64,000 nt of DNA from Candidatus Aenigmatarchaeota archaeon. GTDB lineage: Archaea > Aenigmatarchaeota > Aenigmatarchaeia > GW2011-AR5. The notes beneath the pieces are model-generated. The model did not search any database and was not told the DNA's origin. It saw only the letters and a list, made by a program, of their open reading frames with translations. A program made the translations under genes and the position numbers. The DNA is taken from contig JACQID010000006.1 in assembly GCA_016198685.1 (NCBI GenBank), positions 32,001-96,000 on the forward strand. Reading direction: 5' to 3'. Shown here in pieces: positions 30,583 to 39,225 of this stretch. The stretch's first letter is position 1; each line of letters opens with the position of its first letter.

Positions 30583-31620
30583 ATGATTGGCATTACCGGA
30601 TACGGGGCATACATCCCGCGCTTTCGCATCAAAGCCGAGGAGATAGCCCGCGTCTGGAACCAGGACGGCGAGGCTTTCAAGCGGGGCTTGAAGATAAGTG
30701 AAAAAGCCGTTCCTGCAGCAGACGAAGACACAGTGACTATAAGCGTCGCGGCTGGAAAAAACGCAATAGCGCGGGCTGGCATAGATCCGCAGCAAATAGG
30801 CGCTTTGTTTATAGGAAGCGAAAGTCATCCTTACGCCGTGAAGCCCTCAGGAACGATGGCTGTCGATGCCCTTGGAATAGGGCCGGAAGTCATGGTTGCT
30901 GATTTTGAATTTGCATGCAAGGCCGGAACTGCAGCGATGCAATGCTGCATGGGTCTTGTGCAATCTGGCATGATAAAATACGGGATGGCAATAGGCGCAG
31001 ACACAGCACAAGGTCAGCCAGGCGATGCCCTTGAATATTCCGCTGCTGCAGGCGGAGCGGCTTTTGTCATAGGCAGGGACAATATCATTGCAAAGATAAT
31101 CGATACGTTCTCATTCACATCGGACACGCCTGACTTCTGGAGGCGCGAGGGCGAGAAATATCCGCGCCACGCAGCCAGGTTCACCGGCGAACCGGCATAT
31201 TTTAAACACGTAATTGAAGCAACTAAAGGCATTCTGAAGAAGACGGGCACAACTGTCAATGATTATGATAAGGTCGTATTCCACATGCCTAACGGCAAAT
31301 TCCCGCGCGAAGCGGCGAAGAAGCTTGGAGTTCCTGAAGAGAAGATAAAGGATAGCCTTGTCGTAGAAAATGTCGGCAACAGCTATTCCGGCTCGTCTAT
31401 TGTAGGACTTACAAATGTTTTGGACAAGTCAATACCAGGAGAGAAAATATTGATGACATCTTTCGGTTCTGGTGCAGGAAGCGATTCTTTTGCTTTTGAA
31501 GTTACAGAAAGAATAACCAAAGCACGCGACCTTGCACGGAAGACTGAATATTACATAAACAGGAAGACTTATGTTGACTACGGAACTTATGCACGACTTA
31601 GAAAGAAATTGAAGGTCTAA
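30583..31620 (+). CDS. Hydroxymethylglutaryl-CoA synthase (archaeal type)
   Basis: GYGAYIP, DEDTVT, GSESHPYAVKP, catalytic EFACKAGT, VFHMPNG, GNSYSG, SFGSGAG. Confidence 0.95.
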   Translation: MIGITGYGAYIPRFRIKAEEIARVWNQDGEAFKRGLKISEKAVPAADEDTVTISVAAGKNAIARAGIDPQQIGALFIGSESHPYAVKPSGTMAVDALGIGPEVMVADFEFACKAGTAAMQCCMGLVQSGMIKYGMAIGADTAQGQPGDALEYSAAAGGAAFVIGRDNIIAKIIDTFSFTSDTPDFWRREGEKYPRHAARFTGEPAYFKHVIEATKGILKKTGTTVNDYDKVVFHMPNGKFPREAAKKLGVPEEKIKDSLVVENVGNSYSGSSIVGLTNVLDKSIPGEKILMTSFGSGAGSDSFAFEVTERITKARDLARKTEYYINRKTYVDYGTYARLRKKLKV

Positions 31621-32786
31621 TGATGAAAAATGTTGCTGTAATCGGCTTTGGACAAACAAAGTTCGGAGAACTTTGGGATAAGTCTCTTCGAGATCTTGCT
31701 AGTGAAGCCGGTATGTTGGCATTAAAAGACTCCGGTTTAGAGCCGGAAAAAATAGAGGCTCTTTACATAGGGAGTATGGCAGCCGGACGATTCGTAGGCC
31801 AGGAACATATATCCGCTTTAGCGGCTGATCATCTTGGCTTGAACCCTATTCCGGCGACCCGCACGGAAGCAGCCTGCGCTTCAGGTGCCACTGCTTTCCG
31901 CCAGGCTGTACTTGCAGTTGCCTCAGGAAAACATGATATTGTCATGGCATCGGGCGTTGAAAAAATGACTGACTTAAAGACATCTGAAGTAACCACGGCG
32001 CTGATGGGCGCTGCTGACCAGGAATGGGAGGCAGGAATCGGTCTGACATTCCCAGGACTTTATGCTCTCATGGCACGGGCTCACATGGCCAAATACGGCA
32101 CTACTTTAGAGCAGATTTCTTCTGTTTCTGTAATTAACCATAAACACGGAGCCAAGAACAAGAAAGCCCAGTATCCGTATGAAATCACGCTTGAACAGGC
32201 CATGAATTCCCAGCTTGTGGCAGATCCTCTACGCCTTATGGACTGTTCTCCAATAACAGACGGTGCGGCCTCGGTCATAGTGGCTTCTGAAGAAATTGCC
32301 AAAAAACTCGACCCTGTATGGGTTCTTTCAGTCCAGCAGGCCTCAGATACCATAGCCTTGCATGACCGAAAATCGCTTACCGAGCTTGCAGCAGCCAAGA
32401 TAGCGGCAAAAAAGGCGTATGAGGAAGCGGGCATTACAGCCAATAAAATGGATGTTACTGAAGTTCATGACTGCTTTTCCATAAATGAGATTCTGTCCGT
32501 GGAAGCGCTTGCTTATTGTCCTGAAGGTAGAGGTGGAAAATTCGTGCAAGACGGCAAGGTTGCTGTAGGCGGCGAAAGGCCCGTCAATACAACAGGAGGC
32601 CTCAAAGCAGGCGGCCACCCGGTAGGGGCCACAGGCATCAGGCAGATAGGAGATATATATCTGCAGCTCAAAGGCAAAAGCTGCAACCAGGTAAAGGGTG
32701 CTTCTGCCGGTCTCGCATTGAATGTCGGCGGTTCAGGCGCTACTGCTAATTTGGCTATCTTAGGAAGGGAGTTAAGGAGGAAATAA
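31620..32786 (+). CDS. Acetoacetyl-CoA thiolase (archaeal type)
   Basis: EAACASG, GVEKM, DCSPITDGA, EVHDCF, GGLKAGGHPVGATG, NVGG. Confidence 0.94.
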   Translation: MMKNVAVIGFGQTKFGELWDKSLRDLASEAGMLALKDSGLEPEKIEALYIGSMAAGRFVGQEHISALAADHLGLNPIPATRTEAACASGATAFRQAVLAVASGKHDIVMASGVEKMTDLKTSEVTTALMGAADQEWEAGIGLTFPGLYALMARAHMAKYGTTLEQISSVSVINHKHGAKNKKAQYPYEITLEQAMNSQLVADPLRLMDCSPITDGAASVIVASEEIAKKLDPVWVLSVQQASDTIALHDRKSLTELAAAKIAAKKAYEEAGITANKMDVTEVHDCFSINEILSVEALAYCPEGRGGKFVQDGKVAVGGERPVNTTGGLKAGGHPVGATGIRQIGDIYLQLKGKSCNQVKGASAGLALNVGGSGATANLAILGRELRRK

Positions 32787-32788
32787 AC

Positions 32789-33184
32789 ATGCCGCATAGA
32801 ACAGCAGTTGCACCGGAATGGAGGCTCAAAGAAGGCCGATATAATCTTGTGGGAAGCAGTTGTGCCTGTGGCGAACTTCATTTCCCGGCAAGGCGATACT
32901 GCCCTTCTTGTAAAAAGGAAACTGTACCTCATAAGTTCTTAGGTAAGGGTGAAATCGTCACTTATACTGTCATAAGAAGCGCTCCGGCAGGATTTGAGGA
33001 ATACGCTCCTTACGCTGTTGCCATAATAAAGCTTCAGGAAGGCCCTATGATTTCCGGCCAACTAATAAACCATCCGGAAGAGGTCAAGATCGGGAAGCGG
33101 GTAAGTCCTGTTTTCAGGAAGCTTACTGAAGACGGTGCAGGCGGAATCATCCACTACGGCATTAAGTTCGAGCTTGAAGAATGA
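32789..33184 (+). CDS. DUF35 Zn-ribbon/OB-fold scaffold protein
   Basis: CACG..CPSC, GEIVTYTVI, PYAVAIIKL, YGIKF. Third gene of the thiolase/HMGS cluster. Confidence 0.92.
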   Translation: MPHRTAVAPEWRLKEGRYNLVGSSCACGELHFPARRYCPSCKKETVPHKFLGKGEIVTYTVIRSAPAGFEEYAPYAVAIIKLQEGPMISGQLINHPEEVKIGKRVSPVFRKLTEDGAGGIIHYGIKFELEE

Positions 33185-33580
33185 TATTTTGCCATAATTT
33201 TTATTCGAATATTTTGTTACGTTTTCTATAACAATGGCGCCATAACGCTGTTATTTCTAGTTTCTATTAACCTTTACAGGAAATAAGGGGGTTATCGAAC
33301 CCACTCACCCCTATATTTCTTGTGGAGATTATTAGAAAAGCTAGAAAACTATTAACCTATACTTCATATAACAATGTTATTAAAAATAAATTAATTATAT
33401 ATGCCTTTCCATAGGAAATGAAGGGGTGTTAGATATTACAAGGAATATATTTTGCTGAATTAACCTTTCAAGTAGCAATAACTATATAAGGCGGCCAGAA
33501 GATTATAGTATCTTCATAAGAAACGGGGGTTCCTTCATTTCTTATGAAGCTTTCTATTTTGGGGAATAGAAAGTTTTTTA
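33185..33580. other. Replication origin oriC with at least five ORB-like elements and an AT-rich DUE
   Basis: ORB-like: TTTACAGGAAATAAGGGGG 33273-33291 (+), TCTCCACAAGAAATATAGGGG 33308-33328 (-), TTTCCATAGGAAATGAAGGGGT 33406-33427 (+), CTTCATAAGAAACGGGGGT 33512-33530 (+), CTTCATAAGAAATGAAGG 33532-33549 (-). AT-rich 33330-33402. Directly upstream of cdc6. Confidence 0.88.
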
Positions 33581-33595
33581 ATGGGGGTGTGGTAC

Positions 33596-34849
33596 ATGGA
33601 AGCAGATCAGGAGTTAGTTTTAAGCAATTCAGCAACAAGCGGCAATATATTCTCGCAGTATATTGAAAGCCCGAGTATTTTCACAGATAAGCGCGTTTTA
33701 ACCTCTTCTTTTGTTCCTGGTAGCATACCGCACAGGGAAGAAGAAATAAAGCACATAAGCTCCGTTCTTGCCCCTATGCTCAGGGGTTATCATGCCAATA
33801 ACGTCTTTGTTTATGGGACATGCGGCACAGGAAAAACTATCTGCTGCAGATTCGTTGTTTCCCAATTACAAGAAGCGGTCAAAGCCGCAGCAACACAAAT
33901 TAAGGTCATATACATAAATTGCAAGATGGAGCGGGTTTCCGATACCGAGTACAGGCTTTTTGCCCAAATGCTCAAGCAACTTGGTGAGGAAGTGCCGTAC
34001 ACAGGATTACCAACTGACGTAATCTATAGGAAGTTCTTTGCTAAGGTTGCTGAAAAGAAGCAGAGTGTCATCATCATATTAGATGAGATAGACGCGCTTT
34101 ACAAGAAAGTTGGTGATGATTTCCTTTACAACATAACCCGTGCCAACAATGAATTAGGAGAGGCAAACTTGAGCATAATAGGCATAACCAACGACATATC
34201 TTTCAGGGACAATCTTGACGTGAGAGTGAAATCATCATTAAGCGAAGAAGAAGTGATGTTCAGGCCTTACAATGCCGTGCAGTTAAGGGACATATTGTCA
34301 TCCCGTGCCAAGGACGGTTTTGTCAAAGGGGCCGTGAGCGAGAGCGTCATAAATAAGTGTGCGGCTCTGGCAGCTCAGGAGCACGGCGATGCGCGCAGGG
34401 CTTTGGATTTGTTGAGGGTTGCCGGGGAAGTTGCTGAAAGAATGGGGGAAACAGTCGTCAAGGAAAGGCATGTTGACGTAGCCGAAGAAAAAATAGATCT
34501 TGACAGGATAACCGAGACCGTTAAATCCCAGCCGGCACAATCCCAGCTTGTGCTTTACACGATAATAAAGATGAATGAGGAAGCCAAGCAGAAGGAAAAA
34601 TGGGCCGACAGAAGGCTGCTCACAGGAGACATATTCTCTAAATATGAGGAACTTTGCAGGGCCAATGGCGCAAAGGTTCTTACGCAGCGCAGGATAAGCG
34701 ATCTCATAGGTGAACTGGATATGTTCGGCATAATAAATGCCAAGGTCATATCTAAGGGAAGGCACGGCAGGACCCGAGAGATATCCTTAGCCATGAACGA
34801 AACCGCATTAGGCAAAGTAAGAAACTACCTTATGAACAGGTTTGGATGA
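33596..34849 (+). CDS. cdc6: Orc1/Cdc6 replication initiator
   Basis: PHREEEI, GTCGTGKT, YINC, ILDEID, HGDARRALDLL, C-terminal winged helix SKGRHGRTREI. Start is ATG 33596 or 33581. Confidence 0.96.
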   Translation: MEADQELVLSNSATSGNIFSQYIESPSIFTDKRVLTSSFVPGSIPHREEEIKHISSVLAPMLRGYHANNVFVYGTCGTGKTICCRFVVSQLQEAVKAAATQIKVIYINCKMERVSDTEYRLFAQMLKQLGEEVPYTGLPTDVIYRKFFAKVAEKKQSVIIILDEIDALYKKVGDDFLYNITRANNELGEANLSIIGITNDISFRDNLDVRVKSSLSEEEVMFRPYNAVQLRDILSSRAKDGFVKGAVSESVINKCAALAAQEHGDARRALDLLRVAGEVAERMGETVVKERHVDVAEEKIDLDRITETVKSQPAQSQLVLYTIIKMNEEAKQKEKWADRRLLTGDIFSKYEELCRANGAKVLTQRRISDLIGELDMFGIINAKVISKGRHGRTREISLAMNETALGKVRNYLMNRFG

Positions 34850-35913
34850 TGGACAAAGCTGATATCGTACGGCATTATTTTGACCGGCAGCAGCTTCTGA
34901 CTCCGGCGGCGCTTGATAAGCTATCTGCTGCAGGCAGGCTGCCGGAAACAGATTCCGGGCTTTTTGTCATTGATAAAAGCGATCTTGAGCAGGACAACAT
35001 ACGGATTCTTAAGTGTCTCCAGAGCAGGCCGAAGGAGGTAGACACGGATATGTTCCTGAAATTTTATACGTCCAAATACAACAAAATGCGCGATATATTT
35101 ACTGCGCGTTTCAACAAGAATTTTATCTCCTTGAATAAGGTAGACGCTTCGCGTTCTGAAATAGCGGTATTCGGCATAGTCAAGGATGTGAAAGACAAGA
35201 CAATAGAGCTTGAGGATATGACATCCTCGGTCTCTGTAGTTTTTGAAACTCCGTTGGAAAAAGTGGAGCGCGATGACGCCATTGCAGTCGAGGGTGTAAG
35301 CGGCGGCAAAGTAATCTACGGCAAAAAAATAATGTTTGCAGATGTTCCATTGAGGCAGCCGGCGACGGGCACAGGCAAGGCGTGTTTTATTTCCGATTTG
35401 AGGCTTAGCGAAGCTCCGCGCAAGGAAGCTGAGAAATTCTTTTCGTGGTTCCAGAACCAGGACATCAGGAACCTTTTCATTTGCGGAGACACAGGGGATC
35501 TTGCCGCGCTTGAGGCTATAGTACGCAGATATTGTAGCGGAAAGAATATCTTTGTCGCCCCGGGCGAAGCGGATGACAAAGAGTATCCGCGCTTGCCGCT
35601 TAAGACGCCTAGTGTCACAGCACTTTCGGATCCCGCTATCGTTGAAATCAACGGCATAAAGATACTTGTTATTCATAACTTTGAGATAGGGATGCTGCGC
35701 AAGCGTTACTTGGGCAGGAGCAAGTCTATCTTGCCAGATGACTACTTGGTCTTGGAAGATGTTCCTGATATAGTGCATTGCGGCCATACAGGAAAACCGT
35801 TTGTCCAGAATTACAAGGCCATAACCATAGTCAACAGCGGGTCAATACTGGAGGAATTCAAGCCCGTTGTCATAGATTTTGCCACACGCGAGGTAAGGCA
35901 GGCTGCTTTGTGA
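34846..35913 (+). CDS. PolD small subunit (DP1)/polymerase B-subunit homologue with degenerate phosphoesterase motifs
   Basis: N-terminal helical domain, OB fold (FGIVKDV..IELEDMTSSV), and a calcineurin-like region with ISDLR, CGDTGD, PGEAD, IHN, GHTG, VNSGS. ATGA-coupled to cdc6. Confidence 0.85.
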   Translation: MMDKADIVRHYFDRQQLLTPAALDKLSAAGRLPETDSGLFVIDKSDLEQDNIRILKCLQSRPKEVDTDMFLKFYTSKYNKMRDIFTARFNKNFISLNKVDASRSEIAVFGIVKDVKDKTIELEDMTSSVSVVFETPLEKVERDDAIAVEGVSGGKVIYGKKIMFADVPLRQPATGTGKACFISDLRLSEAPRKEAEKFFSWFQNQDIRNLFICGDTGDLAALEAIVRRYCSGKNIFVAPGEADDKEYPRLPLKTPSVTALSDPAIVEINGIKILVIHNFEIGMLRKRYLGRSKSILPDDYLVLEDVPDIVHCGHTGKPFVQNYKAITIVNSGSILEEFKPVVIDFATREVRQAAL

Positions 35914-35985: not shown

Positions 35986-38658
35986 ATGGCACTTGTTTTT
36001 CAGATACTTGATGTGGATTATTTTCTCAATGGCGATAAGCCTGTAGTCCGCCTCTTTGGAAGAAGTGACGCCGGCAATGCCGTATGCGTATTATGCAGGG
36101 ATTTTCTTCCTTATTTTTACATAAGGCCGAAGAATGAAGAGGCTTTGGATGACGTAAAGGAGATCCTTTCCATAGAAGAAGCGGAAAAATTATTGGCAAT
36201 AGGATATTCAACCAAGAAAACAAGGCTTTTGAAAATCACCATATCGAAGCCGCAGGATGTTCCCATGATTAAGGAACAGCTCCTCAGCCAAGGCATAGCA
36301 GAAGAAGTCTTTGAAGCCGATATATTATTCAAGAACAGGTTTCTGGTTGACCATGACCTGCACGGCATGCAGTGGGCAGAAGCAGACGTTGTCAAGACCA
36401 GTACCAGCACGGTAAAGGTTCCTGCCTTTGAGATGAAATCCATAAAGCCGATGGACAGGAAAGACAACGCCAAACTTTCAATACTATCATTTGATATAGA
36501 GTGCGTGCCATCCGATCCCAACAGGCCACTGGATTCCAAGAAAGACCCTGTAGTCATCATATCACTCTCATTCAACGTTCCTTACAGGGGAACCACGAGC
36601 ATAGTGCAGGTCGCCAAGCCTGTCAACGGAAAAGGGCTGCAGGGATTTCCCAATGAAAAAGACATGCTGGAAGGGTTTCTGCGCGTTATTGACGAATATA
36701 ATCCGGACATAATCACAGGCTACAACATAAACACATTCGACATACCCTACATACTGGAGCGAATGCGGGTGCACGGAATACCGCCCATGCTTGGCAGATG
36801 CAAGGACAAGCCGGCTTATAATAAAAGCACAGGAGTCACGCAGGAATCCATAATTCCGGGCAGGGTGGTTGCGGATCCTTACCAGATATTGAAGAGGGAC
36901 CCAAGAATCAAGTTCAGCCGTTATGACTTAAACACAATATGCAAAGTCCTGCTTGGCGACACCAAAATGGACGTTGAGTACAGGGAGATGCCCAAGCTTT
37001 GGAACGGGCCTCTCGAAGGCGTCTTGCGTTTTGCAGAATATGCACGCAAGGACGCAGAGCTTAATCTGCGTCTTGTGGTTGAAAAGGACATGCTATCCAA
37101 TTTCATAGAAATAGCCAAAGTTTCAGGTACTGTGATGCAGGACACATTCGGCGGCCAGACTTTGCGAATAGACAATATGCTCCTCTATGAGTTCAGGAAG
37201 CGCGGTTATGTTTTACCGGCCAAACCTGATGCCAATTTAATGAATAAACGTACCAATGAAAGGGAAAAAGCAGGGCTCAAAGGCGCAACAGTTCTTGAGC
37301 CGAAGAAAGGATTGCATGCCGAAGGCTGCATACTGGTCATGGACTTCAAGAGCCTATATCCAAGCATAATGAGAACGTTCAATACGTCTCCCGATTCGCT
37401 TCTTGTCGATGATTCGGTCGGCGAGTTTTATACGTCGCCGACCGGCGCGAAGTTCGTGCCTGCATCTGTACACGAAGGAGTGTTTCCGTACATCGTCGGA
37501 AAGCTGCTTGACAGCAGATCAGAAGTCAAGGGGCAGATGAAGGATGCTGACGGCGAAATGAAAAAAATATTGAATGCAAGGCAATATGCGTTAAAAGACC
37601 TTGCCAATTCGTTCTACGGATACACAGGCTATCTGCGGGCGCGCGTTTATGACATACGGGTTGCGAGCACGATAACGGCCATAGGAAGGGAGAACATAGA
37701 GAAGACAAAGGACTTGATTGAAAACAACTTCGACATTGAGGTCGTATATGGCGATACTGACTCGGTTTTCATCAAGACCAAGACCACGAACCTTGAGGAT
37801 GCAAAAAAAATCGGCGAGGATATATCCAAGTTCGTGAGTGAAAGATTGCCAGGTTTTCTTACCCTGGACTTTGAAAAGATATACAGAACGTTCCTTATTC
37901 TTACAAAGAAAAGATATGCCGGATGGAAGTTCGAATTCGGGAAGAATGGATGGGAAGATTCTATAGAGATGAAAGGGATAGAGACGGTGAGACGCGATTG
38001 GTGCAAGCTCGTTTCTGAAACGATGAGAACCGTGCTTGACATAATACTGAAGGAAGGAGACCTGCAGAAGGCGGTCAATGAAACAAAGAGGGTCATAATA
38101 CAGCTCCGCAACAATGAAATAGATTTCGACAAGCTGACCGTTGTAAAAGGAATAACAAAATCTCTTGGAAGTTATGACGGCATGTTGCCGCACATAGAGC
38201 TGGCAAGGAAACTTGCGCAGAGAAACCCCCACGACCCGCCGAAGATCGGCGACCGCCTCGGGTTTGTCATAATCAAGGGCAATCAGATGCTGTCGAAACG
38301 GGCGGAAGATACGAAATATGCAAAGGACAACAAGCTTCAGATAGATTCTGACTACTATATTAATTCCCAAGTCTTCCCCCCTGTAGAGAGGATACTTTCT
38401 TCGGTCGGGGTCGAAAAGAGCGAAGTGTTCGGCTCTGGCCGTCAGTCAACGATAGCAGACATCATGTTCGGAACAAAGCGCAAAATGAAGCATGAAATAG
38501 CCATCAATTACGGCACAGTAGCCGGCTGGGAGGGTCTGGTTTGCCAGAAATGCGCGAAGTCGCATCCGAGAATGCCTTTAAGCGGCAGATGCGAATGCGG
38601 CGGCCCGCTTCTTTTTTCATATCAGGGAAGCGCCGCGCAGAAAGTAGTGACCGAATAG
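35986..38658 (+). CDS. polB: Family B DNA polymerase with intact proofreading motifs and a C-terminal 4-Cys Zn finger
   Basis: Exo I FDIE, Exo II GYNINTFD, Exo III YARKD; pol A DFKSLYPS, pol B KDLANSFYGY, pol C YGDTDS; KKRYA, KGIETVRRD. Tail CQKC..RMPLSGRCECGG. Own TATA (TTTAAATA about 35957). No intein. Confidence 0.96.
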   Translation: MALVFQILDVDYFLNGDKPVVRLFGRSDAGNAVCVLCRDFLPYFYIRPKNEEALDDVKEILSIEEAEKLLAIGYSTKKTRLLKITISKPQDVPMIKEQLLSQGIAEEVFEADILFKNRFLVDHDLHGMQWAEADVVKTSTSTVKVPAFEMKSIKPMDRKDNAKLSILSFDIECVPSDPNRPLDSKKDPVVIISLSFNVPYRGTTSIVQVAKPVNGKGLQGFPNEKDMLEGFLRVIDEYNPDIITGYNINTFDIPYILERMRVHGIPPMLGRCKDKPAYNKSTGVTQESIIPGRVVADPYQILKRDPRIKFSRYDLNTICKVLLGDTKMDVEYREMPKLWNGPLEGVLRFAEYARKDAELNLRLVVEKDMLSNFIEIAKVSGTVMQDTFGGQTLRIDNMLLYEFRKRGYVLPAKPDANLMNKRTNEREKAGLKGATVLEPKKGLHAEGCILVMDFKSLYPSIMRTFNTSPDSLLVDDSVGEFYTSPTGAKFVPASVHEGVFPYIVGKLLDSRSEVKGQMKDADGEMKKILNARQYALKDLANSFYGYTGYLRARVYDIRVASTITAIGRENIEKTKDLIENNFDIEVVYGDTDSVFIKTKTTNLEDAKKIGEDISKFVSERLPGFLTLDFEKIYRTFLILTKKRYAGWKFEFGKNGWEDSIEMKGIETVRRDWCKLVSETMRTVLDIILKEGDLQKAVNETKRVIIQLRNNEIDFDKLTVVKGITKSLGSYDGMLPHIELARKLAQRNPHDPPKIGDRLGFVIIKGNQMLSKRAEDTKYAKDNKLQIDSDYYINSQVFPPVERILSSVGVEKSEVFGSGRQSTIADIMFGTKRKMKHEIAINYGTVAGWEGLVCQKCAKSHPRMPLSGRCECGGPLLFSYQGSAAQKVVTE

Positions 38659-38691: not shown

Positions 38692-38895
38692 ATGGTTATG
38701 TCCAACAAGCACGTCAAGACGATAAACGGCAAGAAATATTACTACGAGTCCGTTCGTAAAGGCAGGAAAGTCACATCGCGCTACATCGGCCCGGCAGAAG
38801 AAACAAAAGAGCAGATCAGTGAAAGTGTAGTTGCAGATAAAAAGCCTATCAAGGAAGAAGACCTCATTACGCCGGATGATCATTATATCGGCTGA
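38692..38895 (+). CDS. Small protein with basic N-terminus, possibly nucleic-acid binding
   Basis: KTINGKKYYYESVRKGRKVTSRYIG followed by an acidic tail. TTTATATAA box upstream. Confidence 0.65.
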   Translation: MVMSNKHVKTINGKKYYYESVRKGRKVTSRYIGPAEETKEQISESVVADKKPIKEEDLITPDDHYIG

Positions 38896-39048: not shown

Positions 39049-39225
39049 TTAGATGTGTCTTGCCTTCAAAGTGCCTTCTTTCCTGTACTTGGCTCTTTCA
39101 ACCGCCTTGTCTATCAGGTGCATGACTTCCTTGTTCAGGATTTCAAGGGCATCCGATCCCATTCGCAGCTTCTTCTTCGCCGCGTATTCTTTCACTTTAC
39201 TTCTTACGACAAGCATTTCTGCCAT
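39049..39225 (-). CDS. Histone-fold protein (58 aa, Bd0055-like short histone); absent from the ORF track
   Basis: Hand translation: MAEMLVVRSKVKEYAAKKKLRMGSDALEILNKEVMHLIDKAVERAKYRKEGTLKARHI*. GGTGA SD and a TTATATAAA box upstream. Confidence 0.88.
   Translation of the reverse strand: MAEMLVVRSKVKEYAAKKKLRMGSDALEILNKEVMHLIDKAVERAKYRKEGTLKARHI

Follow-up and report, generated by a model that had tools for sequence, protein, structure and literature searches.

A DP2-type zinc finger at the C-terminus of a family-B DNA polymerase encoded beside a predicted inactive DP1-like subunit in an Aenigmatarchaeota archaeon

In the archaeal family-D DNA polymerase (PolD), the catalytic subunit DP2 carries a double-psi-barrel core and a C-terminal zinc finger, Zn-III, and its partner DP1 combines an oligonucleotide/oligosaccharide-binding (OB) domain with a phosphoesterase domain (P. 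abyssi 6HMS/6T8H, T. kodakarensis 6KNB). R1131 and R1132 in the KxRRxP loop of Zn-III lie in an electronegative groove between these two DP1 domains, a 20-residue peptide spanning Zn-III binds DP1 with nanomolar affinity, and the corresponding finger in eukaryotic Pol alpha and Pol epsilon (Zn-2/CysB) docks likewise on the B-subunit (Raia 2019, PMC6355029). Here we describe a family-B DNA polymerase (PolB) that ends in a finger of this type and lies directly behind a gene for a DP1-like subunit. It is encoded in a 64-kb stretch of a Candidatus Aenigmatarchaeota archaeon genome (contig JACQID010000006.1, positions 32,001 to 96,000), referred to below as the window.

Polymerases of this build have been described before. 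Kazlauskas, Krupovic, Guglielmini, Forterre and Venclovas (NAR 2020, 48:10142, PMC7544198) defined PolB group B6 and described B6-aenigma1, and report that most Aenigmarchaeota lack DP2 and that an inactivated DP1 co-occurs. The main text of a 2025 paper (Nat Ecol Evol 9:2333, PMC12680538) reports from AlphaFold3 and yeast two-hybrid work that DP1 binds the tailed Aenigmatarchaeota PolB-DP2CTD (CTD, C-terminal domain) and not tail-less PolBs, and holds that the two-finger 'B6-aenigma2' sequences are contamination from Baldrarchaeia instead. The two-subunit design of a PolB with an inactive DP1 is already known in this phylum, published in 2020 and again in 2025.

The window PolB has in common with B6-aenigma1, as the 2020 main text presents it, a single C-terminal Cys4 motif nearest to DP2 zfIII and a genome with an inactivated DP1 and no DP2 found; a Pol delta-like core is probably shared as well. 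No essential difference was found; a PR in place of the RR pair, the lack of an intein and the cdc6-DP1-PolB string are details of this copy. Judged from its sequence, the window PolB has the defining features of B6-aenigma1, and its best PDB match, Pol delta, is consistent with the Delta-like clade. The published B6-aenigma1 example OIN85950 was not found in the paper's supplements or among the cluster members of ten homologues.

Three other systems bear comparison. The C-terminal domain of PolD DP2 shares the C-x2-C-x12-C..C-GG layout, the KxYRRxPLxG loop, the strand that follows and a DP1-type OB/phosphoesterase partner, whereas here the finger sits on a PolB rather than on the double-psi-barrel DP2, its last pair is CxC instead of CxxC, the helices alpha1' and alpha3' and the PIP (PCNA-interacting protein) box are absent, and the partner DP1 appears catalytically dead. 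Baldrarchaeia PolB3-DP2CTD, as set out in the main text of PMC12680538, likewise bears a DP2-derived C-terminal sequence on a PolB, occurs in a DP2-less lineage that keeps DP1, and bound DP1 in the yeast two-hybrid assay; the Baldrarchaeial domain is full length and resembles both DP2 and eukaryotic domains, whereas the Aenigmatarchaeota domain is shorter with a different predicted structure. Eukaryotic Pol alpha, delta, epsilon and zeta with their B-subunits (4Y97, 5VBN, 6TNY) also join a PolB with a C-terminal metal finger to an inactive DP1-type subunit. Each of their C-terminal domains combines a helical bundle with a pair of Cys motifs, CysA and CysB, in contrast to the single motif here, and CysB of Pol delta and Pol zeta binds an Fe-S cluster.

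Homology of the PolB tail to DP2 Zn-III

The polymerase matches Pfam DNA_pol_B_exo1 (PF03104, residues 107-318, E 1.1e-35) and DNA_pol_B (PF00136, residues 388-806, E 1.9e-108), and the motifs FDIEC, DFKSLYPS, NSFYGY and YGDTDS are all intact in its translation. Residues ~807-890 form an additional tail past the Pfam polymerase domain. Beyond the thumb this tail runs through a PIP-like stretch, GRQSTIADIMF, a basic linker, the finger with WEGLV ahead of it, and 17 closing residues. The C-terminus reads ...VAGWEGLV-CQKC-AKSHPRMPLSGR-CEC-GGPLLFSYQGSAAQKVVTE*, in which the four cysteines (codons 38542-38598) follow the pattern C853-x2-C856-x12-C869-x-C871-GG and make up the one Cys motif within the last 120 residues. 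A first, sequence-only reading of the locus had described this tail exactly, with its CQKC...CECGG, 12-residue spacing, PLxG, CGG and final CxC pair, and had proposed that the finger is of DP2 type.

The homology searches bear that proposal out, as NCBIfam, PDB-profile, library and profile-profile comparisons all lead to DP2 Zn-III. The single tail matched three NCBIfam DP2 models, each at the Zn-III position: NF003103 (positions 1043-1079 of 1125, E 1.3e-4), TIGR00354 (E 3.5e-3) and NF011302 (E 4.3e-3). A single-sequence search of the PDB reached DP2 at an E-value of 0.24 only, and a profile was needed. The profile built from 30 tails, compared with all PDB sequences, found residues 1127-1162 of T. 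kodakarensis DP2 (E 4.7e-10) and residues 1119-1154 of P. abyssi DP2 (E 5e-9), the next match being an unrelated C2H2 finger at 2e-3. Against 1.84 billion representative proteins the same profile gave 220 matches at E<=1e-3, with DP2 at E-values down to 2e-9. The best 150 of these 220 comprised 56 DP2 proteins, 29 PolBs, 50 short C-terminal fragments (mostly DP2 or PolB) and 15 others, including C2H2 arrays; the DP2 identity of library matches was checked by Pfam and phmmer, and Pfam confirmed the 8 long matches sampled. Alignment of 120 PolB tails with 31 DP2 C-terminal domains in hhalign gave a probability of 98.6% and an E-value of 8.7e-16 over 37 columns. The aligned region consists of the finger and the following strand only, and the match reaches beyond the cysteines to take in F-x-C, KxYRRxPLxGxC and CGG. 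By these sequence comparisons the PolB tail finger is homologous to DP2 Zn-III. PolB stops 17 residues after the CGG, and DP2 continues for ~80 residues more.

The similarity that the sequence-only reading had sought in profile comparisons was clear for DP2; that to the C-terminal domains of eukaryotic polymerases was marginal and fell below the cut-off. Pfam zf-DPOE, the Pol epsilon zinc-finger model, scored the tail at E 0.034-0.16, under its 21-bit cut-off. This model was matched by 13 of the 30 tails at E<=1 (best 0.0045), and it matches DP2 library proteins at the corresponding place. Pol alpha and Pol delta finger models were not among the Pfam matches listed for the tails, and eukaryotic polymerases were found neither in the best 150 library matches of the tail profile nor in the PDB profile search at E<=10. 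A direct link from the tail to eukaryotes was dropped, as no eukaryotic polymerase appeared in the profile searches. In the PDB, the whole PolB is matched best by the catalytic subunit of human Pol delta (E 4.3e-108), with Thermococcales PolB close behind (E 1.8e-105). The Pol delta alignment extends to query residue 857, which was not taken as finger homology.

The tail is strongly conserved. It is present in 118 of 122 close PolB homologues at identities down to 50%, the other four being truncated sequences, and the close homologues carry Aenigmarchaeota names. In an alignment of 30 tails (46 residues), C9, C12, P20, G23, C25, C27 and G28 are invariant and the consensus EGFVCxKCxKSYRRxPLxGxCECGGELLFS retains the docking loop. 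The tail motif is not a product of chance. A few relatives (L024, L026, P0100, P0122) have a DP2-like CxxC second knuckle (CDVCGG, CKAC, CGRC), a pattern that fits the deletion of one residue once the finger had been taken over from DP2.

Two further observations concern the polymerase itself. From its position, the PIP-like motif would stand where tail-less archaeal PolBs have their C-terminal PIP box, the PCNA-binding motif; the PolBs of the PolD-bearing family end in ...GKQKNLGDFR. The window's PolB has no intein, and many tailed orthologues reach 1300-1400 residues through inteins (Pfam Intein_splicing, LAGLIDADG_3), P0005, P0009, P0021, P0024, P0029, P0031 and P0039 among them.

The DP1-like subunit and the loss of DP2

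The open reading frame (ORF) immediately upstream of PolB encodes a protein of DP1 type. It matched NCBIfam NF003118, the Pol II small subunit model, at E 2.5e-31 (109 bits, far under the equivalog cut-off of 445), and T. kodakarensis DP1 in the PDB at E 6e-8. In Foldseek, its AlphaFold2 model (predicted local distance difference test score, pLDDT, 90.5) retrieved P. abyssi DP1 first (E 5e-25, template modelling score 0.72), with the B-subunits of human Pol epsilon, delta and alpha next (E 3e-19 to 4e-17). The five phosphoesterase motifs read DLR/GDTGD/GEAD/HN/GHTG, compared with the canonical DxH/GDxxDG/GNHD/HG/GHxH. In the same alignment the canonical DP1 of the PolD-bearing family retains all five, and motifs I-III are wholly deleted in more distant relatives. 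Sequence and model together indicate that the protein is a structurally maintained, catalytically dead small subunit. Absence of DP1 from this genome, briefly suggested when the window ORF missed Pfam PF04042 (E 0.059), was overturned by the NCBIfam, PDB and fold searches; a scan of the phylum with PF04042 gave weak matches, all ~3 kb upstream of PolB tails.

DP2 was not found in the source genome (935 kb in 8 contigs, 93.7% complete) with the models PF03833, NF003103 and PF24846. The following distribution and linkage counts describe conservation among related, non-independent genomes and are not a statistical test. Among 121 sampled genomes of the phylum, a tail query was positive in 112, the tail in almost every case closing a frame of ~880-930 residues; a DP1-type gene occurs in 114, and DP2 in 6. 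The DP2-positive genomes are all five members of one family (f9) and a single further genome, G090. Family f9, with both DP1 and DP2, has the tail in none of its five genomes and instead a single tail-less PolB of ~770 residues that ends in a PIP-like QxxLxxF. Tailed PolB and DP2 have a complementary distribution. The two genes of interest are also linked: in the 105 genomes with both, the DP1-like gene lies directly upstream of PolB on the same strand in 71, downstream in 3 and convergent within 6 kb in 23, so that they adjoin in 97; in 8 they are on different contigs, and in none are they far apart on one contig.

G090 is the only sampled genome with a DP1-DP2 pair together with a tailed PolB fragment (C64:998-3058; C30:1324-1419), DP1 and DP2 being adjacent on a 3-kb contig. 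This co-occurrence may reflect bin contamination or a real intermediate. The source genome of the window has a second PolB outside the window (G000:C1:168795-169970, minus strand, locus L004), a tail-less protein of 774 residues ending in ...LLANGLKRFG, which is nearer to the PolB of the PolD-bearing family (32-34% identity) than the tailed PolB is (27-29%). That ordinary archaeal PolBs are without a tail of this sort, as the sequence-only reading stated, agrees with Kazlauskas 2020 (PMC7544198) and with the tail-less ~770-residue PolBs of this genome and of the PolD-bearing family.

Docking of the DP1-like subunit and alternative roles of the finger

Most likely the finger docks the inactive DP1-like subunit and gives a Pol delta-like heterodimer, a reading in which we place high confidence because the finger is homologous to Zn-III, the neighbouring gene product has the DP1 fold and has lost its motifs, the two genes are linked, and the distribution is complementary to that of PolD. 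The tail would be a single zinc-binding Cys4 finger derived from Zn-III of DP2, of the kind that plugs into the OB/phosphoesterase groove of DP1 in PolD, and of the B-subunit in eukaryotic Pol alpha, delta and epsilon. DP2 would have been lost from the lineage and a DP1 homologue kept, shorn of its nuclease metal ligands and encoded directly upstream of PolB. The finger would then tether PolB, itself equipped with a proofreading exonuclease, to this inactive subunit, and the product would be a two-subunit, Pol delta-like replicase encoded beside cdc6. For the pair in the window, zinc binding by the tail and a physical contact between tail and DP1-like protein are predicted from sequence.

Several points weigh against this reading. 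The flanking helices alpha1' and alpha3' of DP2, which make contact with DP1 as well, and its C-terminal PIP box had no counterpart in the PolB tail in the hhalign comparison, and 'degenerate' is the word that the 2025 paper (PMC12680538) uses for the DP2 CTD of Aenigmatarchaeota. In the second knuckle the window copy and most of its family have CxC, so the DP2 spacing C-x2-C-x12-C-x2-C is not matched. The finger loop of the window copy reads KSHPRMP where the family has KSYRRxP, with HPR for YRR: the first arginine is replaced by proline, and only the second (Arg862) is retained. Both docking arginines are lost in some families of the phylum (YPLPPL, YSLPPL, YDMPPL), and f12-type relatives have lost both. 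Complex prediction from alignments of the DP1-like protein and the 46-residue tail scored 0.50, with 0.00 for the best of three controls, and lends weak support to an interaction. At least 97% of contacts agreed between runs, and the partner pLDDT was at least 75. Of 80 solved complexes, 58 reach the mark, and 2 of 110 mismatched pairs do too; among those that reach it with 0.60 or less are just 7 of the 80 and both of the mismatched pairs, and since similar complexes are already solved, a pass may reflect memory or likeness rather than binding by this copy. Finally, by analogy with PolD, where Zn-III also touches the DNA minor groove, docking of DP1 may not be the finger's sole role.

In relatives at L023, L025, L027, L031, L034 and L040, the RR pair is replaced (YPLPPL, YSLPPL, YKMAPL, YDMPPL) and the DP1-like gene is convergent with PolB, not directly upstream. 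Lineages that later lost the RR pair and came to have the two genes convergent may have rewired, or possibly loosened, the DP1 contact.

The DNA contact leads to the strongest of the alternatives, that the finger is not a subunit-docking module at all and the DP1-like protein works independently. In PolD, Zn-III and nearby basic residues contact the nascent duplex (Raia 2019, PMC6355029); here the linker ahead of the finger is basic (KRKMKH), and the docking pair is degraded in the window copy and lost in some families. However, in PolD it is the clamp-1 helical bundle that keeps the finger at the DNA, and that bundle is absent here; the tight linkage with the DP1-like gene and the distribution complementary to DP2 indicate partnership, as does the yeast two-hybrid binding reported in the main text of PMC12680538. 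We therefore regard this explanation as unlikely. Recruitment of another replisome partner, such as the primase PriL or GINS/CMG, instead of or besides the DP1-like protein, appears less probable still. An interaction between the DP2 C-terminal domain and primase is described in the main text of PMC12680538 for Heimdallarchaeal proteins (yeast two-hybrid) and, as cited there, for T. kodakarensis, but those contacts were attributed to the whole domain, whose helices are missing here, and the window showed no linkage between PolB and genes for primase. Hardest of all to credit is convergence, in which a generic zinc ribbon was independently added to PolB: short Cys4 ribbons are common and single tails weakly match adenylate kinase lid, A2L and C2H2 models, but the profile E-values of 1e-9 to 1e-10 are specific to DP2, with generic ribbons at 2e-3 or worse, the match extends into residues and a strand outside the cysteines, and the DP1 neighbour and DP2 loss fit descent.

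The cdc6 locus and the origin of the arrangement

The window order is cdc6, DP1-like gene, tailed PolB (Table 1), and the cdc6 stop overlaps the DP1-like start by 4 nt. Of 30 loci examined, 17 have a cdc6 homologue beside the DP1-like gene, in 16 of them upstream of it. The AT-rich spacer ahead of cdc6 looks like a candidate origin on the basis of its repeats and composition.

Table 1. Features of the cdc6-DP1-PolB locus, in window coordinates
Feature	Position	Strand	Remarks
AT-rich spacer upstream of cdc6	33185-33580		GC ~0.31; 32-nt direct repeats 33264-33295 and 33349-33380; several inverted repeats
Cdc6/Orc1 initiator gene	33581..34849	+	Pfam Cdc6_C E 7.7e-26, Cdc6_lid E 3.3e-25, AAA domains
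DP1-like small subunit	34846..35913	+	355 aa; OB fold and predicted inactivated calcineurin-like phosphoesterase domain
Family-B DNA polymerase (PolB)	35986..38658	+	890 aa; exonuclease and polymerase motifs intact
PIP-like motif Q820-STIADIM-F828	38443..38469	+	by-eye reading; family consensus GRQxSLGDIM
Basic linker GTKRKMKHEIAINYGTVAGWEGLV	38470..38541	+	PIP-like motif to finger; length and sequence variable across homologues
Cys4 finger C853-QK-C856-AKSHPRMPLSGR-C869-E-C871-GG	38542..38604	+	homologous to DP2 Zn-III by sequence comparison
Conserved 17-aa end PLLFSYQGSAAQKVVTE	38605..38655	+	first part aligned with the strand after DP2 Zn-III (HMMER, hhalign)

The classical euryarchaeal origin cluster has the order oriC-cdc6-DP1-DP2. 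The tailed PolB would occupy the slot of DP2 in that cluster, and the gene order suggests, tentatively, that an incoming PolB gene displaced the body of DP2 in place while the DP2 3' end with the Zn-III codons was kept. We consider this route possible yet doubtful; alternatively, the finger was acquired elsewhere. The cdc6-DP1-PolB order does not appear to be discussed in the main text of the 2020 or the 2025 paper, and is a minor addition to the published picture.

Just ahead of the origin-like spacer lie a thiolase gene (388 aa) and then a gene for a ChsH2-type OB/zinc-ribbon protein (131 aa), together spanning 31620-33184. Two small ORFs downstream of PolB, 38692-38895 (plus strand, 67 aa) and 39049-39225 (minus strand, 58 aa), had no Pfam match. 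ARAGORN found no tRNA genes in the 64-kb window, and a scan of the window for sigma-70-type promoters and terminators is uninformative for an archaeon.

This design, in which a PolB carries a finger derived from DP2 and is accompanied by an inactive small subunit of DP1 type, is the archaeal equivalent of the eukaryotic polymerases Pol alpha, delta and epsilon. It bears on how the replicases of eukaryotes came to be put together from pieces of PolB and PolD, a significance already recognised in print. To this picture the window contributes no new concept, and adds a further well-assembled example together with population-level figures for the distribution and gene order of the tailed polymerase in the phylum.

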